From Escherichia coli (GTDB taxonomy: Bacteria; Pseudomonadota; Gammaproteobacteria; Enterobacterales; Enterobacteriaceae): a stretch of DNA of 64,000 nt. Shown here piece after piece: positions 38,080 to 63,735 of this stretch (position 1 is its first letter; each line of letters opens with the position of its first letter). The stretch lies in assembly GCF_001677475.2 (NCBI RefSeq), contig NZ_CP015229.1, one strand, 5' to 3'. The position numbers and the translations under genes were made by a program. The notes beneath the pieces were generated by a model, which had not been told where the DNA came from, searched no databases, and saw only the letters and a program-made list of their open reading frames with translations.

Positions 38080-38388
38080 TTTGTTCATCTCTTTATTTCA
38101 GGTAATAGCAGGTCCTCAATTTCTCAAAGGAGAAATTGATCACGCCGGAAAAAAAGCAAAACCCACCGCTGATAAATAAATCAGTAGTTTGCTTTTTGCA
38201 GATGCAATAACCCAGACCAGCCCGGTAACTGGCTATACTCGTCATACTTCAAGTTGCATGTGCTGCGACTCGAATTATTTAGAGTTTAAAAGGGTTAGCA
38301 GTATATGAGCACCGAGGGATACAGGTATTAACCTGTAATGCTTAAAGTCAGGGAGACCTGTACGCTGAGGTGCCCTTTAGTCAGAAGA

Positions 38389-38493
38389 CTAGCGGGCATT
38401 AAAGAAATGAAAGTCAAAACTATTACGATGTGCAAACTTCATGATATGGGTTGTCCGCCTTATATGAGGCATTAAGCGGTTATTATTTTCCAT
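38389..38493 (-). CDS. speFL: speF leader peptide SpeFL (ornithine-sensing arrest peptide)
   Basis: 34-codon ORF MENNNRLMPHIRRTTHIMKFAHRNSFDFHFFNAR about 300 nt upstream of speF; matches the recalled SpeFL sequence at all but two positions. Confidence 0.7.
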   Translation of the reverse strand: MENNNRLMPHIRRTTHIMKFAHRNSFDFHFFNAR

Positions 38494-38767
38494 TTACCTT
38501 TACCTTTTTCTGTGTCAGTTGAAGGTAGAGTTATTCTATCCATGAAATGGCTATAATCTGTGAAGAAGATCAACAAAAAACGATCATATCCCAAATAATA
38601 AATCATTAATGATGAATAGCGCCATATTAGATGCTGTTTTGTTGTTTAAATGTTGCAATTTTGTGGGTTGTATTTTCATTAAGAAATTAAACCTGCCAAA
38701 TAATAATTTTCGGGGCAGGTTTAATAATAAATTAATAATTATTTAAGCGTATTTATTGAATAATAAT

Positions 38768-39445
38768 TCATGGCATAAACCGATACCCAATACCGGTTTC
38801 AGTAATAAAATGGCGGGGGCGGGCGGGATCTTGCTCCAGTTTTTGTCGCAGATGCCCCATATAAATACGCAAATAATGACTGTGTTCGACCGCGTTTGGC
38901 CCCCACACCTGGTTAAGGAGCTGGCGCTGGGTGAGCACTTTTCCCGCATTATTAAGCAACACTGCCAGCAGGCGGAACTCAATCGGGGTAAGATGCACCT
39001 CTTCCTCGCCCCGATGGATCACACGAGCTGCTAAATCGACGGTAACATCGGAAAATTTCACCAGCGGATCGGGCGCGGTGGTGGCAGAGTGGCGGCGTAA
39101 AGCGACGCGCAGACGGGCCTGCAATTCGCCAATGCCAAATGGTTTACTCAGGTAATCATCCGCTCCGGCATCCAGCGCGGCGATTTTGTCGCTCTCTTCG
39201 CTACGTGCGGAAAGCACAATCACCGGCACTGCGCTCCACTGGCGCAGGTCGCGGATAAACTCAATCCCATCACCGTCGGGCAGGCCGAGATCGAGAATAA
39301 TCAAATCTGGCTTACGGGTTGCCGCTTCCAGCAAGCCGCGTTGCAGCGTTTCGGCCTCAAAGACGCGCATACCGTCGCCCTCCAGCGCCGTGCGCAGAAA
39401 GCGACGAATAGCCTGTTCATCTTCAACAATCAGAACGTTTGTCAC
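38768..39445 (-). CDS. kdpE: Response regulator KdpE (OmpR family)
   Basis: 225 aa, receiver domain plus winged-helix; overlaps kdpD stop. Confidence 0.9.
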   Translation of the reverse strand: MTNVLIVEDEQAIRRFLRTALEGDGMRVFEAETLQRGLLEAATRKPDLIILDLGLPDGDGIEFIRDLRQWSAVPVIVLSARSEESDKIAALDAGADDYLSKPFGIGELQARLRVALRRHSATTAPDPLVKFSDVTVDLAARVIHRGEEEVHLTPIEFRLLAVLLNNAGKVLTQRQLLNQVWGPNAVEHSHYLRIYMGHLRQKLEQDPARPRHFITETGIGYRFMP

Positions 39446-47052: not shown

Positions 47053-48054
47053 TTGCCTGCGCGTTTAAGCCAGCCTCGTATCAGGGGGCTGGTTTAGGCG
47101 TTTTGAATCAACGGGTTCCATGGTGTTGTTCATTTAATCACTGTTTTAGTATCAATTTTCAATAGTATCCTTTCATAGGACTACTCTGGATGCGTTCACC
47201 TTCATTGTCGCTCTAAGCAACTAGATCCTCAGAAATCTCCAGTTAGGTTGCATCCTTCCTTACACACTTTCCTGAAACTTCAGGGTAAGGTGAGAAAGCC
47301 GCCATCACTTTTTCTTATTCCAGCATCTAAATAAATTCCGAATTTTGCTATTAATATCGCTACCGCAATAAAAACAGATAGTAAAGAGAGTAATATATAC
47401 TTTAGTGATATGTTAAGAATAATTGATTGTTAACATATCTAATGGGATAAGATGTGTTTCTGTTAATGAAAATATTCAAGATTTATAGTTGATAATTAAA
47501 ATACACTCGATATCTCAGCCCTTTCTATGCAAGATGCAATTTTATAAGCTGTCCATTTTTTATATGGAGGCGGTAGCGTGTTTGTTACTCGTGATTTTAT
47601 TGGTATGGTGAATATGTTGGGATTGTTAAATACATAACGGCATATCAGTTCCGGTCATTGTAAATATGGGTAATTGCTTAATGTTATTAGTGATTACCGT
47701 TTGAAAGATAAAGAGTGCTGTAAAGCGGTGATAGACATTACATTCATGATTAAAAAACAGAACCTGTCAATAAATAATTCATTTATTAAAAAGGACGACT
47801 TCTATTATGACGGAATATTATCTCAATGAGACGGTTTGCAAATACAGAGCCAGTTTCTCCGGGGTAACGAGCAGGTGTACCAGTGTCAGGTGGCATTTGT
47901 ATTGCCGGGTGAGCGGGTCATGATGGCCTTCACCTACGCCCGAACCACACCGCTGACCCCGGCAGATATGACGCGCTGGGCTGAAATTAAAAAGAATCTG
48001 CGCTTCAGGATGCGGCAGGAAGCCGGGACGAATTAATCACACAGGGAACGGGAC

Positions 48055-51000
48055 ATGGAAGAGGCATTCTGGGCGGCAAGGCAGGGTGATGCCCTGCTGC
48101 ATACGTCGTTTATGGCAGATGTGCTGGGGGCAGTTGTAGAGGTTGCCGCCACAGCCCTGGTGGATGTTCTGGTTGTCGGAACCATGGCGGCGCTGGGCGG
48201 AGTTGAAGTGGCAACGCTGGGCTGCTCAACCATTTTAGCGATCGGTATAGCAACAGCGGTATTTATGTCGTATCAGGGCTGGAATGACCGAATCAGTAGG
48301 GAAAGTGAGCAACTGGCGAACTGGCTTTTCCCGCCTCAGATTGAAGGTTACATCCTCACCGGCTCTGGCGACACATGGATCAACAGCAAACCTGCCGCGC
48401 GGGCCGCGGCGACTGCGGCATCGCGGCAGGACATTGAGGCGCAGGAGGCGCAGGCGAAGGCGGAACAGGAAGAAGCGCAGCGTCAGGAGGATGCCAGAAC
48501 GTTCCTGGATGTGGCCGGGGAATATCTGGAAATGGCGGGGGCCATAGCCCTGGCGGTTAACCCGGTGACAGGGCCTGTGCTGATGTCCCGGGCGCTGCAC
48601 GACCAGCTCAGTACGGAAGAAGGGCGTTCTGAAATGGTGGATGGCGTGACACATTTTGTGTCGGAACTATGGCAGCCCACCGTGGCCAGTGCGGCCCCGG
48701 GCTCCACCCCGACCCCTGACGATAAAATCGACTGCCATAAACATCCCTCCTCACTGACGCAGTTTCTCGCACAAAAAAAAGCCGCCTTTCTGGATGACCC
48801 CCTGGGAACGGCCCTTAACCTGCTGAGTCCGGGCGGTATGCTGGAAACCGCCTTTCAGGGAGTGAATGCGGTTATTGGCAGCATCAGTAATCTGTTCAAA
48901 GGCGATGATGAACCGCCCGCAGCGGAATATATCGCGGAAGGCGCGCGGGATGTGCGTATCAACAGCCAGCCGGCGGCACGCAGCGGGGCACGCTGCACCT
49001 GCGAGGCCAGGGTGGTGAATGAGCCGGGGAACGGGGCGTTTGTGTCACCGGATGTCCGCATTGGCGGTCCGTTACTGGTGGTCAGGGATATCAGAAGCGG
49101 CAGGTCGCAGATAACCCTGGTGGCAACCGTGGCGCTGATGTTTCTTCGCCCGGGCAAAATGCTTTCTAAAATCGCCTGTTTTGCTGCCAGTGTCGGGATG
49201 GGGGTGATGACGCAGAAGGCCATCAGTGCCCTTCCGCATCCGGTCAATGCCGCCACCGGAGCCAAATATCTGGCCGATGACGATGATTTTGACTTCAGTC
49301 TGCCGGGCCACTTTCCGCTGGACTGGCAGCGCGTGTACAGCAGTCGTGACGACCGCACGGAAGGGATGTTCGGGCAGGGCTGGAGTGTAATGTATGAAGT
49401 CAGCCTCGAGCGCACGCCGGGTACTGCTGACGAAAACTGTATGACCTTTGTGTCGGGCATGGGACGACGTCTGGATATGGAGGCCGTGCTGCCGGGGAGC
49501 GGGTTTTACAGCCCCGGCGAAGGACTGGCAGTACGGCGGGGTGAGCAGGGGCACTGGCTTATCAGCAGCGATGACGGGCAGTTTTTTCTGTTTGAGGCCG
49601 ACCCGCGTCACCCGCAGCGCCAGCGGCTGAAAATGCTGGGCGACCGCAACAGCAACTGTCTGAATCTGTACTACGACGAGCTGGGGCGCATCACGCAAAT
49701 CAGCGGTGAACAGCAGCGTCCGTGCATCCGTCTGCATTATGAACTGGCGGCGCATCCCCGGCGGGTGACACAGATTTATCAGCATTTCCCTGAGATGGCT
49801 CCTTTACTGCTGCGTCGTTACCGCTATGACGAGGCCGGCGACCTGAACGGCGTGTACGACAGCACGGGGCACCTGCTGCGCGAGTTTGCTTACGACGAAA
49901 ACCACTGCATGACCCTGCACCGCCAGCCGGGCGGCGAAGGGTATTATTACCAGTGGGGCTGGTATGAAGGCCCGGATGACGCAGCGTGGCGGGTGACGGG
50001 GCACCACACGGACAGCGGTGAACAGTACCGGCTGGCGTGGAGCCTGGCGGCACGCAGGCTGTGCGTGACGGACGGGCTGGGGCGCACGCGTTATCATCAG
50101 TGGGACGCGCAAAATCAGGTGACGGCGTACCAGGACGAAGCCGGGCAGGTGACGACGTTCCGCTGGAGCGACGAAGAACGGCTGTTACTGGGAATGACCG
50201 ATGCGCAGGGCGGCAAATGGCGCTATGTGTATGACCGGCAGGGGCATATCACGGAGACGCACGACCCGCTGGGGCGGGTGGCACAGACACAGTGGCACCC
50301 GGTGTGGCACCAGCCGGAAACGGAGGTGGACGCGGCGGGGAACAGCTGGTGCTGTGAGTACGATGAACGCGGCAATCTTCTTGCGGTGACCGACCCGCTG
50401 CAGCAGAACACCCGGTATCAGTATGACCGCCACGGCCAGGTGGTGCAGATAACGGATGCGCGCGGGGGGAATAAATACCTTCAGTGGAACGAAGACGGGC
50501 AGCTCATGCGGCACACGGACTGTTCCGGCTCGCAGACGGCCTGGTTCTACGACGAACGCACGCGGCTGATACGGATGACAGACGCGCAGAGCCACAGCAC
50601 GCGCTACGGGTATGACGACAGCGGCCACCTGACGGAGGTGATACTGGCGGACGGCCGCACGGTGAATTACCAGTCGGACGCGGCGGGCAGGCTGGTGAAG
50701 TACACCAGCCCGATGGGGAGGATAACGCGCTGGCAGCGGGACGGGCAGGGCCGGGTGCGCAGCCGGACAGACGCGACGGGGCGCAGGACGGCGTTCGGGT
50801 ACGATGCCTACGGGCGTCTGGTCACGCTCACGAACGAGAACGGAGAAAGCTACCGGTTCCGCCATGACGTGCTGGACCGTCTGGCGGAGCAGATAAATCC
50901 GGACGGCTGCCGCCAGACGTACCGCTACAACGCGCTGAACGCGGTCACGGAAGTGGTGTTCACCGGGGACCGGGGCGGTGAAATCCGCCACCGGCTGGCA

Positions 51001-52737
51001 CGTGATGCGGCGGGCCGGCTCACGGCAAAGGAGACAGCCGATGGCCATACGGAATACGTCCATGATGCGGCAGACCAGCTACTGGAAATCCGCCGCCGAC
51101 GGTCGGATGCCGGGGAAACAGACGCACCGGAGATTATCCGTTTCAGTTACGACAGACTGGGGCGGATGCTGACCGAGGAGACGGCGCAGGGCGTCCTGAC
51201 CCATCAGTACGATGAACTCAGCAACCGGACAGCCACCACCTTTCCGGATGGCAGAACGCAGCGTCATCTGTACTACGGCAGCGGCCATCTCCAGCAGATA
51301 AATCTGGACCGGGAGGTCATCAGCGAGTTCACACGTGACGCCCTGCACCGGGAAGTGCTCAGAAGTCAGGGGCGACTGAGCACGCGGCAGCTTTATGACC
51401 CCGCCGGGCGGCTGAAGCGCAGGGAGACATACAGCGGGATGCGCGGGGTGGTACCGGAGACGTTCACGGACCGGCAGTACAGCTACAGCGGCGAGGATGA
51501 ATTGCTGAAGACGCGGCACAGCCGGCGGGGGGAAACGGATTACTTCTACGACCCCACGGGGCGCATCACGGCGTGCCGCTCGGAGGATGAGAGGTATCTG
51601 GCGAGCTGGCAGTACGACGCGGCGGGAAACCTGCTGGGGAGGCGCGCGGGGGAAAGGGCCACGGCAGAAAACAGCGTGGTGCCGTTCAACCGGCTGATGT
51701 CTTACCGTGGTGTGCACTACCGTTATGACGAATTTGGCCGGACGGTGGAAAAGGAGGGCCGGAGCGGCACGCAGAGTTACCGTTATGATGCGGAACACCG
51801 GATGGTGGAAGTGACGACAGCGCGGGGGACATACCGGTATGTGTACGATGCGCTGGGGAGGCGGACGGAAAAACAGCACATCAGCCCTGACGGTAAACCG
51901 TACAACCGGACGACATTTTTATGGGACGGAATGCGGCTGGCGCAGGAGAGCAGGCCGGAGGGAATAAGCAGCCTGTATATCTACAGCGACCCGGGGAGTT
52001 ATGAACCGCTGGCGCGGGTGGATAAGGCGGGCAAAGAGGGCCCGAACCGGATACTGTATTTTCACACGGATGTGAACGGTGCGCCGGAAGAGATGACGGA
52101 CAGTGACGGGAAAATCGTGTGGGAGACGGGGTATCAGGTCTGGGGTAACACGATACAGGAGAAGGACCACGGCGGGGTGGAGCAGAACCTGCGCTACCAG
52201 GGACAGTACCTCGACAGGGAAACGGGGCTGCATTACAATCTGCACAGGTACTATGATCCGGATGTCGGGCGGTTCATGGTAACGGACCCGATAGGGCTGG
52301 CGGGGGGACTGAATCTTTACCAATACTCACCGAATCCAATAAGTTGGATCGACCCGCTGGGATTAACAGGGGAGTGGGTTAATCCCAAAGATATTAATTT
52401 TTCTCAAAGAACAATATCACCTCATGATTATGCCGATATTATGCGTAATGGTGGTTGGGATTGGGACAGGTCTCCATTAAGAGTAATTGATATTGATGGG
52501 CAATTAGTTTCTTATGATAATAGGCGATTAGACGCAGCTCTAGAGGCCGGATTAGATAAGGTTAAAGTCATTAGAGTTGACCCTAATGCTCCTCATCCTG
52601 ACTCATCTACTGGAAAAACATGGTTACAAAAATTCCGAGAGAGATTTAGAGATCGAAGAAATATAAAGGCCGGTGGAATAGTACCAGATAAAGGATTAAA
52701 TTCTCGACCGGAAAGAACATCAAGAGGTTGCAAATGA
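48055..52737 (+). CDS. Rhs-family polymorphic toxin with prePAAR motif, N-terminal TM segments, PAAR motif, YD-repeat shell and variable C-terminal toxin domain
   Basis: 1560-aa ORF; N-terminus MEEAFWAARQGDALLH fits AARxxDxxxH; hydrophobic segments at residues ~20-70; SKPAARA PAAR motif; many YD repeats; [27 protein letters not shown] demarcation before a unique ~130-aa tip. Confidence 0.85.
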   Translation: MEEAFWAARQGDALLHTSFMADVLGAVVEVAATALVDVLVVGTMAALGGVEVATLGCSTILAIGIATAVFMSYQGWNDRISRESEQLANWLFPPQIEGYILTGSGDTWINSKPAARAAATAASRQDIEAQEAQAKAEQEEAQRQEDARTFLDVAGEYLEMAGAIALAVNPVTGPVLMSRALHDQLSTEEGRSEMVDGVTHFVSELWQPTVASAAPGSTPTPDDKIDCHKHPSSLTQFLAQKKAAFLDDPLGTALNLLSPGGMLETAFQGVNAVIGSISNLFKGDDEPPAAEYIAEGARDVRINSQPAARSGARCTCEARVVNEPGNGAFVSPDVRIGGPLLVVRDIRSGRSQITLVATVALMFLRPGKMLSKIACFAASVGMGVMTQKAISALPHPVNAATGAKYLADDDDFDFSLPGHFPLDWQRVYSSRDDRTEGMFGQGWSVMYEVSLERTPGTADENCMTFVSGMGRRLDMEAVLPGSGFYSPGEGLAVRRGEQGHWLISSDDGQFFLFEADPRHPQRQRLKMLGDRNSNCLNLYYDELGRITQISGEQQRPCIRLHYELAAHPRRVTQIYQHFPEMAPLLLRRYRYDEAGDLNGVYDSTGHLLREFAYDENHCMTLHRQPGGEGYYYQWGWYEGPDDAAWRVTGHHTDSGEQYRLAWSLAARRLCVTDGLGRTRYHQWDAQNQVTAYQDEAGQVTTFRWSDEERLLLGMTDAQGGKWRYVYDRQGHITETHDPLGRVAQTQWHPVWHQPETEVDAAGNSWCCEYDERGNLLAVTDPLQQNTRYQYDRHGQVVQITDARGGNKYLQWNEDGQLMRHTDCSGSQTAWFYDERTRLIRMTDAQSHSTRYGYDDSGHLTEVILADGRTVNYQSDAAGRLVKYTSPMGRITRWQRDGQGRVRSRTDATGRRTAFGYDAYGRLVTLTNENGESYRFRHDVLDRLAEQINPDGCRQTYRYNALNAVTEVVFTGDRGGEIRHRLARDAAGRLTAKETADGHTEYVHDAADQLLEIRRRRSDAGETDAPEIIRFSYDRLGRMLTEETAQGVLTHQYDELSNRTATTFPDGRTQRHLYYGSGHLQQINLDREVISEFTRDALHREVLRSQGRLSTRQLYDPAGRLKRRETYSGMRGVVPETFTDRQYSYSGEDELLKTRHSRRGETDYFYDPTGRITACRSEDERYLASWQYDAAGNLLGRRAGERATAENSVVPFNRLMSYRGVHYRYDEFGRTVEKEGRSGTQSYRYDAEHRMVEVTTARGTYRYVYDALGRRTEKQHISPDGKPYNRTTFLWDGMRLAQESRPEGISSLYIYSDPGSYEPLARVDKAGKEGPNRILYFHTDVNGAPEEMTDSDGKIVWETGYQVWGNTIQEKDHGGVEQNLRYQGQYLDRETGLHYNLHRYYDPDVGRFMVTDPIGLAGGLNLYQYSPNPISWIDPLGLTGEWVNPKDINFSQRTISPHDYADIMRNGGWDWDRSPLRVIDIDGQLVSYDNRRLDAALEAGLDKVKVIRVDPNAPHPDSSTGKTWLQKFRERFRDRRNIKAGGIVPDKGLNSRPERTSRGCK

Positions 52738-53168
52738 AAAATATTATTCAGTTATGGGAAGATGGTTTATTACCGATAAAAGATGCTATTTACTTTTCTA
52801 ACGGTGAATCTTTCCTTTGTAAAATAACATCTTACCCTACTCCTTGTATTGAGAAAAATGGTGAGTTTGATTTCTCTGCCTTTTATGAAAAAAATAAAGA
52901 TGAAGTTACTGATATTGATAAGTCTAGAGAAGTTAAATTAGCGAATAATTGCTATTGTTGCATTGGAGAAGGTAGTTATGGTTCTGAAGGATTTATCGCA
53001 TATCTCGATGAAAATAAAAACTTAGTTTGGGTTCTTTATTCCGAAGAATCTAATCCATTTATTAATATAACTGAATATACATCTGATATTATTATAGTAG
53101 AATCAAGTTCTAATATTAGACTAAGAATAAATATAAACAATCCAGTGGATTTAGAATTGGCATTTTAA
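52734..53168 (+). CDS. Putative cognate immunity protein of the Rhs C-terminal toxin
   Basis: ATG overlaps the rhs TGA stop (ATGA); AT-rich 144-aa ORF directly downstream of a toxin tip. Confidence 0.6.
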   Translation: MKNIIQLWEDGLLPIKDAIYFSNGESFLCKITSYPTPCIEKNGEFDFSAFYEKNKDEVTDIDKSREVKLANNCYCCIGEGSYGSEGFIAYLDENKNLVWVLYSEESNPFINITEYTSDIIIVESSSNIRLRININNPVDLELAF

Positions 53169-53169
53169 A

Positions 53170-53211
53170 TAAAAAGCCGGGTGAAATTAAATCTTCCCGG
53201 CTTTTTTATTA
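53170..53211. terminator. Hairpin terminator (AAAGCCGGG-loop-CCCGGCTTTTTT), first of four copies of this motif
   Basis: Perfect GC stem flanked by A and T runs between the immunity gene and the convergent symE-like gene; similar hairpins at 57795-57835, 60412-60452 and 62816-62902. Confidence 0.7.
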
Positions 53212-53212
53212 T

Positions 53213-53542
53213 TTAACTCTCGTTCAGCACACTAAACATCCCGTTCCGCATCCCCTTAACCACCTGTTTAACCTGATAAAGTTCTTCCCGCAGCTCCTGC
53301 ACCTCGTCACTGTCAGCGATGATGGTCAGGTACCCCTCCGAAATCTTCACCGTGACACCCCGCCCGGTATCAAATCCCGCCTCAGCCAGCCAGTCGCCCT
53401 TGAGGTGCAGGCTGGGATGTTGTGAATAATACCGGGCTATACCTGTTGTGCGGTCCTGGTGGCGGGTTCTGACATAGCCGACTTTATAGCGGCGCTGGGT
53501 TTTGGAAATGGTGACTTCTGGCGTAATATCGTGTTCAGCCAT
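53213..53542 (-). CDS. SymE-like protein (type I toxin family, AbrB/MazE-like fold), full-length copy
   Basis: 109-aa ORF; core HLKGDWLAEAGFDTGRGVTVKISEGYLTII resembles SymE KGxWLxxAGFxxGxxVxV motif as recalled. Confidence 0.6.
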   Translation of the reverse strand: MAEHDITPEVTISKTQRRYKVGYVRTRHQDRTTGIARYYSQHPSLHLKGDWLAEAGFDTGRGVTVKISEGYLTIIADSDEVQELREELYQVKQVVKGMRNGMFSVLNES

Positions 53543-53781
53543 GATTAACTACTCCTGTTAGTTGCTTGTGGTGAGCGGCTGTTACAGGCGGCAACCTGTA
53601 GCAGTCGCGTTAAATATCAACGCATTACCTTCATTACCTGCTTCATCTTCTCCTGGGTGATCGCCATATCCAGAATACGGCAGATCACTTCCTGATCGTC
53701 TGCTTTAAGCTCATCAACCTGCTTACACAGTTCTTTTAACCGCTTGTTTTTTATATCGAAAACATCGCGGAAGAAGAAGGT

Positions 53782-54861
53782 GTGCGCCAGGCGGCCTACG
53801 CGCTCAAGCTGTTGCAGTCGGACGGGGAACTGACCATCGCCAGTACGGGCAAGGATGACGCCAGCGGTAACCTGGTCACCAAACAGTATACGGTGAAAGG
53901 CCCGGTGATGCTGATGCTGACCACCACCGCCATCGATGTTGACGAGGAGTTACTCAACCGCTGTCTGGTGCTGACGGTGAACGAATCGCGGGAACAGACG
54001 GAAGCTATCCACGCGGCGCAGCGTTACGCGCAGACGCTGGAAGGACTGCTGGCGGCTAACGAAAAAAGTTACATCACGCAGCTTCACCAGAACGCGCAGC
54101 GGCTGCTGCGCCCGCTCAACGTGGTGAACCCGTTCGCCTCGCAGCTCACGTTCATGAGCGACAAAACCCGCACCCGGCGCGACCACATGAAATACCTGAC
54201 GCTGATCCAGGCGATCGCCCTGCTGCACCAGTACCAGCGGGAGATCAAGCGCGTGGAGCATCGCGGGCAGGTGGTGGAGTACATCGAGGTCACGCGGGAG
54301 GACATCGCCCTGGCGAACCGCCTGGCACATGAAATACTCGGGCGCACCCTGGATGAAATGCCGCCGCAGACGCGCAAACTGTTAACCCTGATCCAGCAAT
54401 GGGTGAGCGACAGCGGTCAGGCGCGTGAGGCGATGCGGTTCACCCGTAAACAACTGCGTGACGCGGTACAGTGGGGCGACACGCAGCTCAAGATCCACCT
54501 GGCGCGGCTGGTCGAAATGGAATATCTGCTGGTCCACCGTCTCGGGCTGACGTTCTGCTATGAACTGCTGTTCGACGGGGACGGCAGCGCAGACACCGCG
54601 CACCTGTGCGGGCTGATCGACGTACCGGAACCACCGTATGACGTCGCCCGGTCGGGGGAAACGGTGAAGCAGCTGGCCTCTGGTCGGGCAGTGGTCGGCG
54701 GTCAGTCGGGTAAGGAAAAAACCGCCTCAGACCAGACACCACGAGGCTTACAGGCCGGAGCGGTCGGGGCAGAGGAAAAAGCCCTGTTCCGGCAGAACGC
54801 AAAAAAACCGTCCCGCAATCATACTGCGGCCCGTCCGGGCCGGAGCAACACGGAAGCATAA
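53782..54861 (+). CDS. Hypothetical protein, apparently 5'-truncated (no ATG; frame closed by TAA just upstream); function unknown
   Basis: 1080-nt open frame in GC-rich DNA, far longer than the overlapping opposite-strand ORFs; no family recognised. Confidence 0.35.
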   Translation: MRQAAYALKLLQSDGELTIASTGKDDASGNLVTKQYTVKGPVMLMLTTTAIDVDEELLNRCLVLTVNESREQTEAIHAAQRYAQTLEGLLAANEKSYITQLHQNAQRLLRPLNVVNPFASQLTFMSDKTRTRRDHMKYLTLIQAIALLHQYQREIKRVEHRGQVVEYIEVTREDIALANRLAHEILGRTLDEMPPQTRKLLTLIQQWVSDSGQAREAMRFTRKQLRDAVQWGDTQLKIHLARLVEMEYLLVHRLGLTFCYELLFDGDGSADTAHLCGLIDVPEPPYDVARSGETVKQLASGRAVVGGQSGKEKTASDQTPRGLQAGAVGAEEKALFRQNAKKPSRNHTAARPGRSNTEA

Positions 54862-55065
54862 GTACGACTTCATCCGGTCGGGGCAACGGCTGCAATAGTC
54901 GGCCCCTGGTCGGCAGTCAGTCGGCGGGTAGTCGGGGTGCGTAAAACCCCCGCAGGCCGCGCCCGGCAAGGTTCAGGCCATGAAGCGGTCGGCCTGCCTG
55001 AAAATCACTGTTCCATCCTCTGTTCTTCTCTCTGTCGTACCGTAATCTCAATCAGGACAATCATC

Positions 55066-56095
55066 ATGACAAAACCCATCCCTCCGGGGCCGGAGGAACT
55101 TTACCTCAGCCGCCAGAACCTGACGCAGCGCCAGTATGTGGTGGTGTGGCTGGAATACCTGACGGCACAGAACTACAGCGCGATCAGCGTAAGCGACTAT
55201 CGCGAACGGGTGTTACCGTTCGTGACATGGTGTGAGGAGCGCGGGCTGATGTACGCGCCGCAGGTCAGCCAGCCGCAGCTTGAAAGCTATCAGCGCCACC
55301 TTCACGGCTACCGTAAGGCGGACGGCCATCCGCTGGCGGTCAGCGGTCAGGTGGGCCGGATAAGCGCGATAAAAATCTTTTACCGCTGGCTGCTGAAGCG
55401 GCATGTGATCCTGTACAACCCCGCCGATCTGCTGGAACTGCCAAAGCCGGACAAACGGCTTCCGGCGCAGGTGTTCAGTAAGGGCGAGACGCGGCAGGTG
55501 TTACAGAGCCTTGATATCAACACGCCCGTTGGCCTGCGCAACCGGACAATCCTTGAGGTGCTGTGGAGTACCGGGATCAGGCGGATGGAGCTGGCCAGCC
55601 TGATGTTGTGGGATGTTGACACCGGGCGCGGTGTGGTTAACGTGCGGCAGGGTAAGGGGCGTAAGGATCGGGTGGTTCCGGTGGGCCATGTGGCGCTGGG
55701 ATGGCTGGCAAGACGTGCGACCACAGATGACGCGCCAGCGCGACAGTGGTCATCTGTTCGTGACGAAATACGGCAGCGGGATGAAACGCAACACGCTGAC
55801 GGCGATGGCAGGCACCGCGATCCGGGAAACGGCACGGATCGACAAACCGGGCGCGTGCCATATCTTCCGGCACTCGATGGCGACGCAGATGCTGGACAAT
55901 GGCGCAGACACGCGGCATATCCAGGCGATCCTCGGCCATGAGAAGCTGGAGACGACGCAGATCTACACGAAGGTGGCCATAAAGCCGTTGCAGAAGGTTC
56001 ATGCGCGGACGCACCCGGCAGAGAAGCGGCGAAGGGAAAAGCGCGTGCAGCAGCCGGACGAGGCCACCGTATCGCCGGACAGCCTGAAAAGTTAG
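55066..56095 (+). pseudogene. Tyrosine recombinase (phage-integrase family) with frameshift
   Basis: N-terminal SAM-like domain in one frame to ~55710 ([13 protein letters not shown]), catalytic domain ([16 protein letters not shown]...[13 protein letters not shown]...[13 protein letters not shown]) in the other frame from ~55700; single indel inferred. Confidence 0.65.
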
Positions 56096-57005
56096 GTGGC
56101 GATCCCTGTAAGGCCGTGGGGTGCGGTGCAGGGCAGACAACCGCCTTCCCTGGCGGTTGACTGCCCCCTGCCAGCGGCGTGCGCGGGGGTAAATGCCGTC
56201 CGCCCCGTGGAGGCAGCCGCGCCCCATGCGACCATGCAGCACGGGGCAAACGTCATTCAACATAATGCGGATTATGCGCACTCTCGCCGGTCGGCAATGA
56301 CGGCGAACCCGATCCGCTGTGCGCGGCTCGTGTTCGCACAATCCGCATTATGTCTGACGCCCCCGCGTTCAGCCCCGTGGTCCGTGCAGCGCAAAGCTTC
56401 GCTGGCGCTCCGCTCTGCTGCCGGGTGCGGTGTTCTTCTGTGGCCCCGCAGTCGCCGCCATCCCTGGCGGCTCCGGTGCCGTTCTGCGGCAGCGTCATCG
56501 TGTGGCAGTCAGTCAGAAAAGGGTGTCGGCCTGGCGGCCTCCGCTTGTAAGGGCTTTATGCCCGCCCGGCGTCGTCTGGCTGCGGCGGCTCGTGCCGCGC
56601 AAAAAGGCCGCGCGTCACTCGTTCCCGCCTCGCCAGCTTCCGCTGCCCGCCCCGGTCAGGTGTGGTCATGCAAAGGCAACCCCCGGTCAGGCAGCGGTGC
56701 CACAGAGCGCCGTTCCGTCGCTTGCGGACTCTCTGCCGCCCGCACCCGCAGACCCCGCGCCGTGGCCCCGCCATGCCGCCGGAGGCGTCCTGGCGGCCCC
56801 CCGTCACGGGGTGCCGGAAACGGACTTAGTGGAAAGCGGAATGACAGGCGGTGGTGGTGGTGCTATGGTGAGCGGGCGTGAAAATGCGCGTCGGGAAAGT
56901 CGGGTTAACGTGCTGTTAAATAAGTAAAAGGTGATAGCCGGGAAGCCAGAAACGGCGCGGGCGGTAGCGTGTTAAAAAGTGTGACCTGCACCGGATCGTT
57001 CCGAT

Positions 57006-57515
57006 GACCCGATAGGACTGCGGGGTGGATTAAATCTCTATCAATATGCGCCGAATCCGTTGAGCTATATTGATCCTCTTGGCCTTTGTAAATTAAGGGG
57101 AAGTAATGGGCGCTTCAGAAGTGCTCAGAATATTCAGGAAGAAATAGGCGGACTACCTAATTTTTCAGGGAAGACTCCAGGGCAAATACGACAAACTTTG
57201 CGTAATCGAGTTTATTCGTCGGTACAAGCGCATAGTGGTGGAGAGGTCTGGACAAAAGCATTACCTGACGGAAATACTGTTGCTGTGAGAATTGACCCGG
57301 CAAATCCTCGCTCACCTTCACATTATGCTGATGCTGTGCCTCATGCTCATATTGAAACAGTTCCAACGTCCAGTGTTTCTAATGGGAATTATCGCCCACG
57401 AGACGTGACTGGCAGGCATACTGCCACTGGTGGGATTTCTGACCGAGGAACGAATCCGAATCATAATGCTGATGTTCACATTCCAATGTCTCCGGGACGA
57501 TTCCCATATAATTAA
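57006..57515 (+). CDS. Orphan Rhs C-terminal toxin module (DPIGL homology patch plus toxin tip), no upstream core
   Basis: Frame opens with [28 protein letters not shown] then a unique ~140-aa domain; no ATG at the patch. Confidence 0.6.
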   Translation, partial: DPIGLRGGLNLYQYAPNPLSYIDPLGLCKLRGSNGRFRSAQNIQEEIGGLPNFSGKTPGQIRQTLRNRVYSSVQAHSGGEVWTKALPDGNTVAVRIDPANPRSPSHYADAVPHAHIETVPTSSVSNGNYRPRDVTGRHTATGGISDRGTNPNHNADVHIPMSPGRFPYN

Positions 57516-57526
57516 TGTGAGGTTTT

Positions 57527-57790
57527 ATGAATATCCGAAATCAATATAATGAAGCCTTAAATAAATTAGAAGTTGATGTTAATGATGGTTTAAGAGATTT
57601 AATAAACATATATTGTGTAGCTATTGATTCTTTTGAAAATGATATCGTTGACTCGATTGCTTTATACGTGATTGATATGGGAAATAAAGATACTTGTCGA
57701 TATCTACAAGAAATATTATCAGAGAATGAAGATCCTTATTTAGTAAAAGAATTTAATGCATGGATGAAAGAAATTAAGAAAAAATATTAA
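57527..57790 (+). CDS. Putative immunity protein for the orphan toxin at 57006-57515
   Basis: AT-rich 87-aa ORF 11 nt downstream of the toxin stop with RBS-like GAGG. Confidence 0.5.
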   Translation: MNIRNQYNEALNKLEVDVNDGLRDLINIYCVAIDSFENDIVDSIALYVIDMGNKDTCRYLQEILSENEDPYLVKEFNAWMKEIKKKY

Positions 57791-57836
57791 AATAAAAGCC
57801 GGGACGGTTATTAAATCTTCCCGGCTTTTTTATTAC

Positions 57837-58070
57837 TTAACTTTCGTTCAGCACACTAAACATCCCGTCACGCATTCCCTTAACCGCCTGTTTAACCAGA
57901 TAAAGTTCCCTGCGCAGTTCCTGTACTTCGTTGTTATCCGCAAGCAGGATCAGACATCCTTCCGAGATCTTCACGGTGACGCCCGTGCCGATCTCAAATC
58001 CCGCTTCTCTCAGCCATTTTGCGCTGATTTTGATTACCGGCGTGTCGCTGCGGTTGGGCAGATAACCCAC
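57837..58070 (-). CDS. SymE-like protein, short paralog (77 aa)
   Basis: KISAKWLREAGFEIGTGVTVKISEGCLILLADNNEVQELRRELY...; synonymous differences from copy 1 in this frame. Confidence 0.55.
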   Translation of the reverse strand: MGYLPNRSDTPVIKISAKWLREAGFEIGTGVTVKISEGCLILLADNNEVQELRRELYLVKQAVKGMRDGMFSVLNES

Positions 58071-58263
58071 GGTACAGTGGCGCTGTGTTTTGGAAATGAT
58101 ATTCTTATATTTAATCTGCTGATTAGATAGTAAAATTAACTTCGTGCAGATAGCTTACTTTATCAGGGTGCGGCGGTAGTGTATGAACTATGACGTGATG
58201 GTTTTAGTGATTTATATACGAAAATGACAGTACGATCCGGACTTCGAATAGATTGCGCGATTT

Positions 58264-58413
58264 GACCCGATAGGGCTGGCGGGGGGATTAAATCTCTATC
58301 AATATGCGCCTAATCCGTTAAGTTATATTGATCCACTTGGATTGTGTCCTAAAACTGACTTTAAATGGGGAAATCCCAGGGAAAGATCACGTAATGCTGC
58401 TTTTTTGTACTAA
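58264..58413 (+). pseudogene. Truncated orphan rhs C-terminal fragment
   Basis: [49 protein letters not shown] then stop, just before the ISAs1 element. Confidence 0.5.
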
Positions 58414-58419
58414 ACAATT

Positions 58420-59700
58420 CGCATTTTATGTTTAAAAATTGAGATATTCCTCATTACATAAAGCTGTTTTTTATTGCTTATACATGATCAAATACTCCTT
58501 ACATAATTAAGGAGAACAAAATGGAACTTAAAAAATTGATGGAACATATTTCTATTATCCCCGATTACAGACAAGCCTGGAAAGTGGAACATAAATTATC
58601 GGATATTCTACTGTTGACTATTTGTGCCGTTATTTCGGGTGCAGAAGGCTGGGAAGATATAGAGGATTTTGGGGAAACACATCTCGATTTTTTGAAGCAA
58701 TATGGTGATTTTGATAATGGTATTCCTGTTCACGATACCATTGCCAGAGTTGTATCCTGTATCAGTCCTGCAAAATTTCACGAGTGCTTTATTAACTGGA
58801 TGCGTGACTGCCATTCTTCAGATGATAAAGACGTCATCGCAATTGATGGAAAAACGCTCCGGCATTCTTATGACAAGAGTCGCCGCAGGGGAGCGATTCA
58901 TGTCATTAGTGCGTTCTCAACAATGCACAGTCTGGTCATCGGACAGATCAGGACGGATGAGAAATCAAATGAAATTACAGCTATCCCTGAACTTCTTAAC
59001 ATGCTGGATATTAAAGGAAAAATCATCACAACTGATGCGATGGGTTGCCAGAAAGATATTGCAGAGAAGATACAAAAACAGGGAGGTGATTATTTATTCG
59101 CTGTAAAAGGAAACCAGGGGCGGCTAAATAAAGCCTTTGAGGAAAAATTCCCACTGAAAGAATTAAATAATCCAGAGCATGACAGTTACGCAATTAGTGA
59201 AAAGAGTCACGGCAGAGAAGAAATCCGTCTTCACATTGTTTGCGATGTCCCTGATGAACTTATTGATTTCACGTTTGAATGGAAAGGACTGAAGAAATTA
59301 TGCGTGGCAGTCTCCTTTCGGTCAATAATAGCAGAACAAAAGAAAGAGCCAGAAATGACGGTCAGATATTATATCAGTTCTGCTGATTTAACCGCAGAGA
59401 AGTTCGCCACAGCAATCCGAAACCACTGGCACGTGGAGAATAAGCTGCACTGGCGTCTGGACGTGGTAATGAATGAAGACGACTGCAAAATAAGAAGAGG
59501 AAACGCCGCAGAATTATTTTCAGGGATACGGCACATCGCTATTAATATTTTAACGAATGATAAGGTATTCAAGGCAGGGTTAAGACGTAAGATGCGAAAA
59601 GCAGCCATGGACAGAAACTATCTCGCGTCAGTCCTTGCGGGGAGCGGGCTTTCGTAATCTTGCCCTGGGGGAAATCCAAAAAGTAAGCCTACATACGGTC
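58420..59700 (+). mobile_element. ISAs1-family (H-repeat) element; ends not precisely mapped
   Basis: Contains the 378-aa H-repeat-associated transposase ORF; boundaries approximate. Confidence 0.6.
58521..59657 (+). CDS. ISAs1-family transposase (H-repeat-associated protein, YhhI/YbfD-like)
   Basis: 378-aa ORF with typical H-rpt protein content; K-12 rhs loci carry homologues. Confidence 0.8.
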
Positions 59701-59726
59701 ACACATTTTCTGAACACGGACAGAAA

Positions 59727-59993
59727 ATGAAACCAAGTCAGTTAATTGATCGTGCCAGAAATAAAGGTCATCAAGTAGGACAATATCTCGATGATAATTC
59801 TGCTGCTGATTTTATTGCTTCTGTTGCCAAAAAAGGTCCGGGTGTGCATGATGTGCCATTGCCTACAAATATAAAAGGTCGAGGTTATTTGCCTGATGGG
59901 ACAGAGGTCGTTCCAGATATGGCAAGGGTTGTTGTAAAACCCGATGGTTCTGTACGAACATCGTTCCCATTCAATTCATCACACACCAACTAA
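59727..59993 (+). CDS. Hypothetical protein, possibly the distal part of an orphan toxin split by the ISAs1 insertion
   Basis: 88-aa ORF starting 70 nt after the H-rpt transposase stop, followed by an immunity-like ORF. Confidence 0.35.
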   Translation: MKPSQLIDRARNKGHQVGQYLDDNSAADFIASVAKKGPGVHDVPLPTNIKGRGYLPDGTEVVPDMARVVVKPDGSVRTSFPFNSSHTN

Positions 59994-60010
59994 AGTAATG
60001 AAGGGTATAT

Positions 60011-60391
60011 ATGAATGAAATAGATAAGATCTGTAGTGAACTTGGCGTACCAGTTGGTGATAAGTTTACACAAGATTGGGCTTATGAACTGCCTGAAAAA
60101 TATCGAACTAAAGAGTGGCTAAGTAAATACATTGCTGCATACTTAAACAATGGCTACTCCCAAAAAGGGAAGACTGAATTAATGACTTTAGCCCTTGATG
60201 TCTGTAATGATTTATTATCTTCTGGAGTACCCCCATCAGATGAGGTTATTATAAAAGTACTCAACGCCCTGCGTGATAATTACAAAAATCATATAGATCT
60301 TATTAATTATTGGTCCTTGGATGATGAATCTTTAGATGACAGTTTTGCATTAACTCCTGAAATAAGGGAGCTAAAAAGAAGATTGATTTAG
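60011..60391 (+). CDS. Putative immunity protein
   Basis: AT-rich 126-aa ORF followed by the shared hairpin terminator and a convergent symE-like gene. Confidence 0.45.
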   Translation: MNEIDKICSELGVPVGDKFTQDWAYELPEKYRTKEWLSKYIAAYLNNGYSQKGKTELMTLALDVCNDLLSSGVPPSDEVIIKVLNALRDNYKNHIDLINYWSLDDESLDDSFALTPEIRELKRRLI

Positions 60392-60452
60392 GATTATAAT
60401 ATTATTAAGTTATAAAAAGCCGGGAATATAATCTTCCCGGCTTTTTTATTAT

Positions 60453-60695
60453 TTAACTCTCGTTCAGCACACTAAACATCCCGTCACGCATCCCCTTAAC
60501 CGCCTGTTTAACCTGATAAAGTTCCCTGCGCAGTTCCTGTACTTCGTTGTTATCCGCGAGCAGGATCAGGCAACCTTCCGAGATCTTCACGGTAACGCCC
60601 GTACCGATCTCAAATCCCGCTTCTCTCAGCCATTTGGCGCTGATTTTGATCACCGGCGTGTCGCTGCGGTTGGGCAGATGCTGCGCTGGCAGCAC
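60453..60695 (-). CDS. SymE-like protein, paralog with replaced 5' end
   Basis: Near-identical to the 57837-58070 copy from codon ~5 onward; upstream sequence replaced by the rhs core fragment at ~60700. Confidence 0.5.
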   Translation of the reverse strand: MLPAQHLPNRSDTPVIKISAKWLREAGFEIGTGVTVKISEGCLILLADNNEVQELRRELYQVKQAVKGMRDGMFSVLNES

Positions 60696-60704
60696 GACGG
60701 CAGA

Positions 60705-62083
60705 GCCAGACGTACCGTTACAACGCGCTGAACGCGGTCACGGAAGTGGTGTTCACCGGGGACCGGGGCGGTGAAATCCGCCACCGGCTGGCACGTGATG
60801 CGGCGGGCCGGCTCACGGCAAAGGAGACAGCCGATAGCCGAACGGAATACGTCCATGATGCGGCAGACCAGCTACTGGAAATCCGCCGCCGACGGTCGGA
60901 TGCCGGGGAAATGGACGCACCGGAGATTATCCGTTTCAGTTACGACAGACTGGGGCGGATGCTGACTGAGGAGACGGCGCAGGGCGTCCTGACCCATCAG
61001 TACGATGAACTCAGCAACCGGACAGCCACCACCTTTCCGGACGGCAGAACGCAGCGTCATCTGTACTACGGCAGCGGCCATCTCCAGCAGATAAATCTGG
61101 ACCGGGAGGTCATCAGCGAGTTCACACGTGACGCCCTGCACCGGGAAGTGCTCAGAAGTCAGGGGCGACTGAGCACGCGGCAGCTTTATGACCCCGCCGG
61201 GCGGCTGAAGCGCAGGGAGACATACAGCGGGATGCGCGGGGTGGTACCGGAGACGTTCACGGACCGGCAGTACAGCTACAGCGGCGAGGATGAACTGCTG
61301 AAGACGCGGCACAGCCGGCGGGGGGAAACGGATTACTTCTACGACCCCACGGGGCGCATCACGGCGTGCCGCTCGGAGGATGAGGGGTATCTGGCGAGCT
61401 GGCAGTACGACGCGGCGGGAAACCTGCTGGGGAGGCGCGCGGGGGAAAGGGCCACGGCAGAAAACAGCGTGGTGCCGTTCAACCGGCTGATGTCTTACCG
61501 TGGTGTGCACTACCGTTATGACGAATTTGGCCGGACGGTGGAAAAGGAGGGCCGGAGCGGCACGCAGAGTTACCGTTATGATGCGGAACACCGGATGGTG
61601 GAAGTGACGACAGCGCGGGGGACATACCGGTATGTGTACGATGCGCTGGGGAGGCGGACGGAAAAACAGCACATCAGCCCTGACGGTAAAGCGTACAACC
61701 GGACGACATTTTTATGGGACGGAATGCGGCTGGCGCAGGAGAGCAGGCCGGAGGGAATAAGTAGCCTGTATATCTACAGCGACCCGGGGAGTTATGAACC
61801 GCTGGCGCGGGTGGATAAGGCGGGCAAAGAGGGCCCGAACCGGATACTGTATTTTCACACGGATGTGAACGGTGCGCCGGAAGAGATGACGGACAGTGAC
61901 GGGAAAATCGTGTGGGAGACGGGGTATCAGGTCTGGGGTAACACGATACAGGAGAAGGACCACGGCGGGGTGGAGCAGAACCTGCGCTACCAGGGACAGT
62001 ACCTCGACAGGGAAACGGGGCTGCACTACAATCTGCACAGGTACTATGATCCGGATGTCGGGCGGTTCATGGTAACGGACCCG
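60705..62083 (+). repeat. Near-identical direct repeat of the main rhs core 3' region (50914-52292)
   Basis: Nucleotide and protein near-identity to the main rhs over ~1.38 kb with a handful of substitutions (read by eye). Confidence 0.8.
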
Positions 62084-62518
62084 ATAGGGCTGAGAGGCGG
62101 ATTAAACTTATACCAATACGCGCCTAATCCGTTAAGCTGGATCGATCCTCTTGGATTAAGTGCCGCCTCTGATTTACCTCAATTAAAAGGAAGATCCCCA
62201 GGGGCAATAGGTTCTATTCTTACTGATAATGGATTCAATTTAGATAAACAAACAAGTACCGGGAATCAGACTTGGAGCCACGCCGATGGTTCTAAAGTTC
62301 GTGTCGATCCCTATGGAAACCAAAGTATGACTATGAAAAACGGTGATCCATTACCGAAATCAGGAGCTAACGCACATGTGCATAAATATGATCCCGGTGA
62401 GATACCGCTGAATGACAGAGGCATTCCGAGTACAAATCCAAATGAAACACATATAGGGATCAGGAATCCAAATGATTATTCTACAAAACGAGGGCGGGCC
62501 CATGGGTGCGGCGTATAA
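60746..62518 (+). CDS. Orphan Rhs fragment: C-terminal part of YD-repeat core plus an alternative C-terminal toxin tip
   Basis: 590-aa ORF; first ~455 aa match the main Rhs, ending [27 protein letters not shown], then a unique ~120-aa tip. Confidence 0.8.
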   Translation: MVFTGDRGGEIRHRLARDAAGRLTAKETADSRTEYVHDAADQLLEIRRRRSDAGEMDAPEIIRFSYDRLGRMLTEETAQGVLTHQYDELSNRTATTFPDGRTQRHLYYGSGHLQQINLDREVISEFTRDALHREVLRSQGRLSTRQLYDPAGRLKRRETYSGMRGVVPETFTDRQYSYSGEDELLKTRHSRRGETDYFYDPTGRITACRSEDEGYLASWQYDAAGNLLGRRAGERATAENSVVPFNRLMSYRGVHYRYDEFGRTVEKEGRSGTQSYRYDAEHRMVEVTTARGTYRYVYDALGRRTEKQHISPDGKAYNRTTFLWDGMRLAQESRPEGISSLYIYSDPGSYEPLARVDKAGKEGPNRILYFHTDVNGAPEEMTDSDGKIVWETGYQVWGNTIQEKDHGGVEQNLRYQGQYLDRETGLHYNLHRYYDPDVGRFMVTDPIGLRGGLNLYQYAPNPLSWIDPLGLSAASDLPQLKGRSPGAIGSILTDNGFNLDKQTSTGNQTWSHADGSKVRVDPYGNQSMTMKNGDPLPKSGANAHVHKYDPGEIPLNDRGIPSTNPNETHIGIRNPNDYSTKRGRAHGCGV

Positions 62519-62530
62519 GGTAAGAAATTA

Positions 62531-62815
62531 ATGAGTGTTGAATATGTTATACATGTCGATGATAAAGTAGATAATTTACTTTCTTTTATTGTCGAGAGAA
62601 TAAAGGAAAATCAACCATCCTCTCGAATTAATACTGACGGTTCACTTTGGATTCCATCTAGCTATTCAAATTGGATTGATTTTTCAATAGAAGACCATGA
62701 GGATGGTTTTTTTATTGTAAATAATTTAAATGGAAGTGATAGAGATAAATTATTTTCACTGATATTTACTGCCTTTCATGAATTATCTATAAAATATGAA
62801 ATAGAAGAAGTCTAA
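62531..62815 (+). CDS. Putative immunity protein for the orphan toxin tip at 62120-62518
   Basis: AT-rich 94-aa ORF 12 nt downstream of the toxin stop. Confidence 0.5.
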   Translation: MSVEYVIHVDDKVDNLLSFIVERIKENQPSSRINTDGSLWIPSSYSNWIDFSIEDHEDGFFIVNNLNGSDRDKLFSLIFTAFHELSIKYEIEEV

Positions 62816-62828
62816 TGAAAGCCGGGTT

Positions 62829-62880
62829 TTTGGACTGACCCCATAAAGTTGGACACCCAACTGATTAAGGTGCAGTCCAA
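62829..62880. mobile_element. Miniature inverted-repeat element resembling back-to-back IS3-family terminal repeats, inserted in a terminator loop
   Basis: TTGGACTGACCCCATAAAGTTGGACA ... CAGTCCAA; resembles the IS IR TGAACTGCACCCCAAATGTTGGACA at 1044; the other three hairpin copies lack this ~52-bp segment. Confidence 0.4.
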
Positions 62881-62902
62881 CATATTCCCGGCTTTTTATT
62901 AT

Positions 62903-63136
62903 TTAACTCTCGTTCAGTACACTAAATATCCCGTCACGCATACCCTTAACCACCTGTTTAACCTGATAAAGTTCCCTGCGCAGTTCCTGTACTTCGTTGT
63001 TATCTGCAAGCAGGATCTGGCAGCCTTCCGAGATCTTCACGGTAACGCCCGTGCCGATCTCAAATCCCGCTTCTCTCAGCCATTTTGCGCTGATTTTGAT
63101 TACCGGCGTGTCGCTGCGGTTGGGCAGATAACCCAC
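62903..63136 (-). CDS. SymE-like protein, short paralog (77 aa)
   Basis: Near-identical to the 57837-58070 copy. Confidence 0.55.
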   Translation of the reverse strand: MGYLPNRSDTPVIKISAKWLREAGFEIGTGVTVKISEGCQILLADNNEVQELRRELYQVKQVVKGMRDGIFSVLNES

Positions 63137-63329
63137 GGTACAGTGGCGCTGTGTTTTGGAAATGATATTTTTGTATTTAACCTGCTGATTAGATAGTAAA
63201 ATAAACTTCGTGCAGATAGCTTACTTTATCAGGGTGTGGCGGTAGCGTATGAACTATGATGCGGTGGTTTCAGGAATGTACGTACAAAATCGATAGTACG
63301 ATCCTCCAATCAGGTAGATTTGCTGCCCT

Positions 63330-63734: not shown

Positions 63735-63735
63735 T

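Follow-up and report, generated by a model that had tools for sequence, protein, structure and literature searches.

How would a cell deliver a type VI secretion system (T6SS) effector of a kind expected to need a chaperone, when neither an intact chaperone gene nor any secretion gene lies beside it? The question is posed by a 64,000-nucleotide stretch of an Escherichia coli chromosome (contig NZ_CP015229.1; "the window" in what follows), which carries at a kdp-ybfA rhs hotspot a complete prePAAR-type rhs effector gene with an overlapping immunity gene. The initial annotation set the lack of chaperone and T6SS genes against this architecture. It was correct that no intact chaperone gene is nearby, but incomplete: directly upstream of rhs, at 47807-48036, lies an eag gene inactivated by a deletion, and the same allele is common to 83 complete E. 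coli genomes. The chaperone gene is therefore present as a pseudogene rather than absent. The reading that we consider probable is that the locus is a polymorphic-toxin module, comprising the dead eag, an intact rhs, an immunity gene and an orphan array, for which Eag, VgrG and the T6SS are supplied from elsewhere in the genome and whose toxin binds nucleoside triphosphates (NTPs).

The remnant can be recognized by comparison with strain A34, in which RefSeq annotates an intact 150-aa "DcrB-related" (DUF1795/Eag) gene directly 5′ of rhs. The window retains the start codon (47807) and the first 10 codons, then lacks 223 bp (junction 47836|47837), and continues to the stop at 48036, so that 230 bp remain of 453. 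Because 223 is not a multiple of three, the frame is broken: the 5′ reading frame runs out at 38 codons, the final 66 codons survive only in another frame, and the full frame of about 150 aa is not retained. RefSeq calls the equivalent remnant "DcrB-related protein, incomplete" in strains 64.1, 181.1, 20Ec-P-124 and VCSW5. A promoter and terminator scan 5′ of eag and rhs returned a single site (47750-47778), which chance alone would account for.

Inspection of the other open reading frames (ORFs) of the window, which include IS3, hscC-like, XerC-like, ISAs1 and symE-like genes and rhs orphans, bore out the initial finding that T6SS structural genes are missing from these 64 kb; vgrG is missing from them as well. 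With the cis eag destroyed and no vgrG or T6SS gene in the window, export must rely on genes elsewhere. This is not in itself peculiar: in E. coli, rhs loci commonly lie dispersed and at a distance from T6SS clusters, and orphan rhs genes have been described in enterohaemorrhagic E. coli (PMC7216683), so that a setting with neither chaperone nor T6SS is no anomaly.

How widespread is the deletion, and do its carriers keep another eag? A 54-nt probe spanning the junction, unable to seed on the intact gene, matched 83 of 5426 complete E. coli genomes, once in each, always at 96-98% identity over the 54 nt and never exactly. In the same genomes the full-length eag query found 389 places in 212 genomes, and the deleted segment alone 293 places in 204. 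It follows that at most eight genomes are without a segment-bearing copy, and that at least 75 of the 83 deletion carriers keep one, near-identical in sequence. The initial annotation was right to expect an Eag (DUF1795) chaperone for an effector of this architecture.

Three deletion carriers (181.1, 20Ec-P-124 and VCSW5) were viewed at both the ybfA and the ansP locus. In all of them the deleted eag at ybfA precedes a full-length Rhs (1552, 1544 and 1539 aa respectively); the tip is different in each, and the immunity genes downstream also differ, one being of the barstar family. Near ansP-yncE, the position of RhsE, all three have the order vgrG-eag-rhs-immunity-symE. The Eag encoded there is intact and identical across the three (WP_000141612.1), and shares 148 of 151 residues with the Eag of the A34 ybfA locus, the ancestral form for that locus. 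Over its first 120 residues the Rhs of the window differs at a single position from the Rhs beside the intact Eag in 181.1 (119/120 identical).

Two observations favor the ansP island as the source of Eag and VgrG: rhs ORFs behind the deleted eag have remained long and open, with diversified tips, and most carriers have an intact matching Eag elsewhere. The arrangement would have precedents. Eag proteins are needed for the stability and export of prePAAR effectors, and the gene for one of them, EagT2, lies apart from that of its effector (Ahmad et al., 2020, PMC7773334). Delivery of Rhs-CT toxins by E. coli T6SS2 needs vgrGO1 and eagR, according to the accounts of that work in two later papers (Ma et al., 2017, via PMC6730261 and PMC7216683). 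As those accounts describe them, the vgrGO1-eagR-rhs-CT modules belong to the same species and effector family as the window gene, and the ansP island of its relatives has exactly their order, vgrG-eag-rhs-immunity-symE; the window copy differs in standing at the ybfA hotspot, without vgrG and with its eag deleted.

Another possibility is that the locus is a decaying relic: without eag, the Rhs protein would be unstable, unloaded and undelivered, and the locus would be kept for immunity against kin and as a store of tips for recombination. The frame-breaking deletion itself and the reported necessity of Eag for effector stability and export (PMC7773334) both speak for this, as does the retention of an identical immunity gene in other strains as a terminal orphan cassette by yafV. 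E. coli K-12 retains Rhs elements and is not known to have a T6SS. Several observations that favor a relic, or otherwise weigh against supply in trans, come from the relatives. T6SS genes were not found at the aspV-yafV island, a usual T6SS-2 site and the only site walked, in either 181.1 (150 kb) or 20Ec-P-124 (50 kb). At the ansP locus, vgrG of VCSW5 has an internal stop and rhs of 181.1 is frameshifted; ansP islands therefore decay too. The sole complete genome with the tip and immunity pair of the window, A34 (94% identity; 1 of 5426), has a frameshifted rhs. Eag chaperones are also reported to be effector-specific (PMC7773334), and, the view of the strain itself being the 64-kb window, an intact eag, a vgrG and a T6SS elsewhere in its own genome can only be presumed. 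Against a relic stand the 4.7-kb ORF, open in the window and in all three inspected deletion carriers with differing tips, which would be unexpected in a long-dead gene; the further eag copy with the deleted segment held by at least 75 of the 83 carriers; and an N-terminus, the part expected to bind Eag, identical to that encoded beside an intact eag copy. On balance we regard the relic as fairly unlikely, and supply in trans as the probable explanation.

The aspV-yafV island of 181.1 and 20Ec-P-124 is occupied by type I secretion and adhesin genes and by mobile-element debris, with an ISAs1 fragment adjoining yafV.

What does the intact gene encode? The initial description of a complete prePAAR-type Rhs effector was upheld in each of the features it named. 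The ORF is open throughout and its N-terminal motif conforms to the published prePAAR definition (Ahmad et al., 2020, PMC7773334). The two hydrophobic stretches first reported correspond to the one transmembrane region, the only part of the protein above a Kyte-Doolittle value of 1.6 over 19 residues, with two to three helices inside it. The PAAR-like SKPAARA sequence (aa 111-117) lies within the first PAAR motif (aa 97-118), and the second and third motifs occupy aa 291-338. Of the profiles searched, as the initial annotation had proposed, Pfam PAAR_motif (PF05488) matched aa 291-321 with E 1.9e-5, and there was a weak second match to it at aa 97-118 with E 1.7. The RHS families matched also (Pfam RHS, and Rhs_assc_core at aa 1360-1437), but NCBIfam T6SS_PAAR_dom, at 18.5 bits, fell short of its cutoff of 124. 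The YD shell was likewise as described, and the unique tip follows the end of the core motif YYDPDVGRF...DPIGL...DPLGL, in which DPIGL...DPLGL spans aa 1411-1437 and the final DPLGL aa 1433-1437. By these features (prePAAR motif, one transmembrane domain region N-terminal to PAAR, YD cage, C-terminal toxin) the protein is, on sequence evidence, a class I prePAAR effector.

Two other placements were tried and rejected. The candidate second transmembrane domain of a class II architecture would have to lie at aa 150-181 or 352-391, which are both below the hydropathy threshold and align to the linker and to the seal peptide and anchor helix of RhsA. A classical element of the RhsA-D type would be expected to exceed the NCBIfam RHS_core cutoff of 2000 bits; the score was 330.

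The closest solved structure, matched at E = 0 over aa 287-1443, is 7q97, the RhsA of Pseudomonas protegens. The PAAR split mirrors that of RhsA, with a linker longer by about 30 and 47 residues, and ALPH395|P396 and DDDD408-411 align respectively with the N-terminal autocleavage site of RhsA, H304|P305 (mapped by Günther et al., 2022, PMC8765631), and with its D318-320. Both RhsA/EagR1 and Salmonella Rhs1/SciW share with the window the prePAAR motif, a single transmembrane region, PAAR, a plug with the H|P site (PMC7773334, PMC8765631), the YD cocoon and the aspartyl autoprotease at the C-terminus; in gene order, too, they agree, with eag directly upstream and the immunity gene downstream. 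Compared with RhsA, the eag of the window is a pseudogene, vgrG is not adjacent, the toxin tip is unrelated, and the length exceeds the 1426 residues of the 7q97 chain by about 135 aa, mainly in the split-PAAR linker.

By analogy with these systems, prePAAR and PAAR would fold into a cone capping the VgrG spike, an Eag dimer would keep the single transmembrane region soluble until firing, and the YD shell would enclose the C-terminal toxin. The aspartyl-protease core, with its DPxGL motif, would cut the toxin, which would stay in the cocoon after cleavage and be freed in the target cell after T6SS firing; the overlapping immunity protein would shield sibling cells. Export would draw on Eag, VgrG and a T6SS encoded outside the window, the first two most probably from the vgrG-eag-rhs island near ansP.

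Table 1. Features of the rhs module and its downstream array in the window.
Feature	Position	Strand	Basis
eag (EagR/DUF1795/"DcrB-related") chaperone pseudogene	47807..48036	+	Alignment with intact 453-bp gene of strain A34
rhs, intact predicted class I prePAAR Rhs effector, 1560 aa	48055..52737	+	ORF open over 1560 codons; family and structure matches
prePAAR motif AARQGDALLH (aa 7-16)	48073..48102	+	Fits AARxxDxxxH
Single transmembrane region (aa 18-73), expected Eag-binding segment	48106..48273	+	Hydropathy scan
PAAR domain, split by linker of about 170 aa	48343..49068	+	Pfam PF05488; alignment to RhsA
Plug start, DUF6531 (aa 395-473)	49228..49473	+	Pfam; alignment to RhsA
YD-repeat shell (cocoon)	49474..52132	+	TIGR01643, 11 matches; RHS_core aa 579-1326
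Rhs-associated core with aspartyl autoprotease motif (aa 1360-1437); end of conserved part of protein	52133..52365	+	TIGR03696, PF03527
Toxin tip (aa 1438-1560), predicted ParB/sulfiredoxin-fold domain	52366..52734	+	Predicted structure; DNRR (aa 1488-1491), SQRT (aa 1450-1453)
Immunity gene, 144 aa	52734..53168	+	ATG overlaps rhs TGA
symE-like gene, convergent, closing the module	53213..53542	-	SymE family in relatives; PF08845 in L005-L012
Orphan tip and immunity cassettes (57060-57515 with 57527-57790; 59727-59993 with 60011-60391)	57060..60391	+	ORF at 57060 begins MSYIDPLGL
Orphan rhs 3′ fragment with own immunity ORF (62531-62815)	60696..62815	+	97.7% identical to main rhs

The N-terminal part of the protein has a variation of its own. 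Residues 28-90 (window 48136-48324) form a two-allele cassette in E. coli: one version is found in the window, at the 64.1 ybfA locus and at the 181.1 ansP locus, the other at the ybfA loci of A34 and 181.1. Identity between the two versions is only about 40%, against complete identity in the residues on either side (1-27 and 91-140). Each type is found beside an Eag, and the Eag proteins concerned agree at 148 of 151 residues, which sits oddly with the reported effector specificity of Eag.

Could the protein act with neither T6SS nor chaperone, by lysis or some other release, or inside the producing cell, for example as an abortive-infection or addiction module with symE? T6SS genes are absent from the window and from aspV in its relatives, and each cassette has a symE-like toxin gene in close linkage. 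The prePAAR motif, transmembrane domain and PAAR are however adaptations for mounting on VgrG (PMC7773334, PMC8765631), the paralogous copy lies directly 3′ of a vgrG, and no evidence of another route was found. We consider action of this sort very improbable, and T6SS delivery with components supplied in trans remains the probable course.

The least ordinary part of the locus is the toxin domain, to which the initial annotation gave no identity. The boundary between core and tip is sharp: homology to the downstream orphan rhs, and to the paralogue, ends at 52366, where GC content falls from 58% to 38%. When the tip and 31 family members were compared with Pfam and NCBIfam, only RHS and PT-HINT carrier domains matched; PF02195, the ParB N-terminal domain, matched neither the tip nor any of the 31. 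A sequence search of the PDB with the tip gave nothing meaningful (levansucrase, E 0.14). An Ntox47 match on the linker was at chance level and was set aside. The structure model confidently predicts a ParB/sulfiredoxin fold, and its best structural matches are NTP-binding ParB, Noc, KorB, ATP-dependent sulfiredoxin and a serine kinase.

Homologues of the tip number 44 by direct search and 104 by profile. They stand at Rhs C-termini in Salmonella (98% identical), Serratia, Snodgrassella, Gilliamella, Pseudomonas, Streptomyces and Lysinibacillus, and one is on a Ruminococcus PT-HINT protein. A search of cluster representatives gave 205 clusters (at 50% identity) at E <= 1e-10, nearly all with the match C-terminal; the long members sampled were Rhs proteins. 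The family is unannotated, and its carriers are Rhs proteins in proteobacteria, actinobacteria and firmicutes. Across 31 sequences V52, D55, N56, R57, R58, A62 and R97 of the tip are invariant, and S17, Q18, R19 and T20 nearly so. The DNRR motif would take the place of the phosphate-binding P-motif, GERR in ParB and GNHR in ToxB, an equivalence that we infer from motif context and fold rather than from residue-level superposition.

The tip fits the predicted Tox-ParBL1 class, whose published signature is likewise a conserved N-terminal Ser with an [NT][RT][RT] motif, here N-R-R (Zhang et al., 2012, PMC3482391). With Tox-ParBL1/Tox-ParB it shares the ParB fold, that serine and the N-R-R motif, the counterpart of DGHHR; carriers of the Rhs and PT-HINT kinds, in the same three phyla, are common to both as well. 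It differs in that no Neisseria (MafB) members appeared in the tip searches, the type member of the class being N. gonorrhoeae NGK_2271, and in that the immunity protein of the window is not SUKH or Imm44 by Pfam.

A second comparison is with the nearest analogue that has been characterized by experiment, CdiA-ToxB, an ATPase toxin of contact-dependent inhibition with the ParB-CTPase fold, from a family concentrated in Enterobacterales; the preprint describing it does not mention Rhs or the T6SS (bioRxiv 10.64898/2026.05.05.722872). Shared features are a C-terminal ParB-fold toxin, a phosphate-binding xxR motif and a small immunity gene directly 3′. The differences are several. ToxB was found with PF02195, which the tip does not match; the carrier is Rhs/T6SS rather than CdiA/type V secretion, with no VENN or cdiBAI setting, the long family members sampled being Rhs proteins and one a PT-HINT protein; the motif is DNRR rather than GNHR; and the immunity protein of the window is a predicted all-beta propeller fragment. 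Since PF02195 fails to match and the carrier differs, the tip is, as judged from its sequence, not a member of the ToxB family, and at most would work like ToxB.

What, then, would the toxin do? Its fold and its likeness to characterized proteins predict an NTP-binding enzyme, for which NTP hydrolysis or phosphotransfer would be more likely than nuclease activity. The alternative is a DNase, the "ParB-like nuclease" of earlier assignments: Zhang et al. (2012) argued for a nuclease, in Tox-ParB and Tox-ParBL1, from the predominance of nucleases among polymorphic toxins, and pNOB8-type ParB "nuclease" domains are also among the structural matches of the tip. The same paper nevertheless calls the original nuclease assignment erroneous (PMC3482391), the best structural matches are the NTP-binding, ATP-dependent and kinase proteins listed above, and ToxB, to date the one polymorphic toxin of this fold to be tested, has ATPase activity and does not bind DNA. 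The invariant residues of the tip, moreover, are the putative phosphate-binding arginines. We hold a DNase to be distinctly unlikely, and prefer NTP chemistry.

The immunity gene begins within the end of rhs, as first described: bases 52734-52737 are ATGA, and an AAGAGG Shine-Dalgarno sequence lies 8 nt 5′ of the ATG. Its product is modeled with high confidence (predicted local distance difference test, pLDDT, 94.7) as an all-beta fragment of about three propeller blades, matching two to three blades of WD40- or YncE-type propellers. NCBIfam gave no match to it, and its homologues are without a precomputed Pfam domain. There are 53 homologues, in organisms matching those of the toxin homologues; in Gibbsiella greigii toxin and immunity homologues have consecutive locus tags. 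An invariant cluster, G78/S81/G83/G86/F87, lies in a GEGSYGSEGF stretch. Small propeller fragments are able to form full propellers as oligomers.

An immunity gene 100% identical to that of the window is found in four draft E. coli contigs (L005, L006, L007 and L012) as the last cassette of a long orphan array, made up of immunity and symE units, beside yafV-ivy-fadE; L006 and L012 also have, just 5′ of it and overlapping it by 4 nt, the 98-aa remnant of a toxin. The pair is thus live at ybfA and held as an orphan beside yafV, and must therefore move between rhs loci.

Downstream of the module the window holds three orphan tip and immunity cassettes (57060-62815), an ISAs1 transposase gene (58521-59657) separating the first two. 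Main rhs (50902-52366) and orphan rhs (60696-62159) are 97.7% identical up to the DPLGL codons, after which a different tip follows; such identity is, from the sequences, the standard substrate for tip replacement by recombination. A truncated symE-like copy (60453-60695, minus strand) comes after the cassette at 59727-60391, and in the yafV-side arrays of other E. coli isolates (L005-L012) three symE-like genes per locus stand among the orphan cassettes; the symE-like gene (PF08845) looks like part of the repeated unit. A 97-aa ORF (63441-63734) after the last orphan immunity gene has no family match and could represent one more orphan piece, of either a toxin or an immunity gene.

A foreign fragment (53782-57000) of 60-67% GC, against about 50% for the chromosome, separates symE from the first orphan tip. 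It contains a 359-aa ORF with no NCBIfam match and the gene of a XerC-like tyrosine recombinase, which a frameshift divides in two (54937-55941 and 55613-56095), and looks like a decayed integrative element. Annotations in related genomes that match window 53200-64000 include "DNA primase" and "xerC".

The remainder of the window is ordinary E. coli chromosome. From 4248 to 47638 it is collinear, at 93-98% identity, with the annotated region of strain 64.1 running rihA...nag-glnS-fur-pgm-potE-speF-kdpEDCBAF-ybfA. The first 4.2 kb hold one ORF, an IS3 element and an hscC-like gene: the ORF (84-1004; 306 aa) has no NCBIfam match, the IS3-family element follows with two ORFs (1086-1616 and 1868-2443), and together (84-2443) they stand where strain 64.1 has leuS-ybeL sequence. 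The potE-speF segment (34541-38226) is 92.8% identical to strain 64.1, as against 97-98% in its flanks, and the approximately 530 bp after it (38227-38760) fail to align with that strain, GC content being 39.6% over 38001-39000; the divergence suggests either import by recombination or a divergent allele. Draft contigs L008 and L010, only 7-10 kb in length, are 100% identical to the window; contigs of GCA_031341795.3 and GCA_033692315.1 match window 51545-61336 at 100% identity.

In kind, then, the module is ordinary, a class I prePAAR Rhs, by its motifs, at a known E. coli hotspot. The apparent anomaly is removed: the site is an rhs hotspot of the normal E. coli sort whose eag happens to be dead, and is not to be read as encoding a chaperone-independent effector. 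A bolder form of the proposal, which we find somewhat doubtful as a whole and offer tentatively, is that one ansP vgrG-eag island serves several rhs loci, those with deleted eag and with either transmembrane cassette included, and that the cargo here is the first ParB/sulfiredoxin-fold toxin delivered by Rhs and the T6SS, with NTP chemistry and a propeller-fragment immunity protein.

The deletion allele, joined to full-length and tip-diversified Rhs proteins, offers natural strains in which chaperoning in trans, from one rhs locus to another, can be tested directly. It is relevant to Eag specificity as well, near-identical Eag proteins accompanying transmembrane cassettes that are only about 40% identical. 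The tip would extend ParB-fold toxins from contact-dependent inhibition to T6SS/Rhs delivery, possibly with a different chemistry. If a distributed system with ParB/sulfiredoxin-fold cargo is indeed what the locus represents, it would hold a toxin-immunity pair without an experimentally characterized counterpart.

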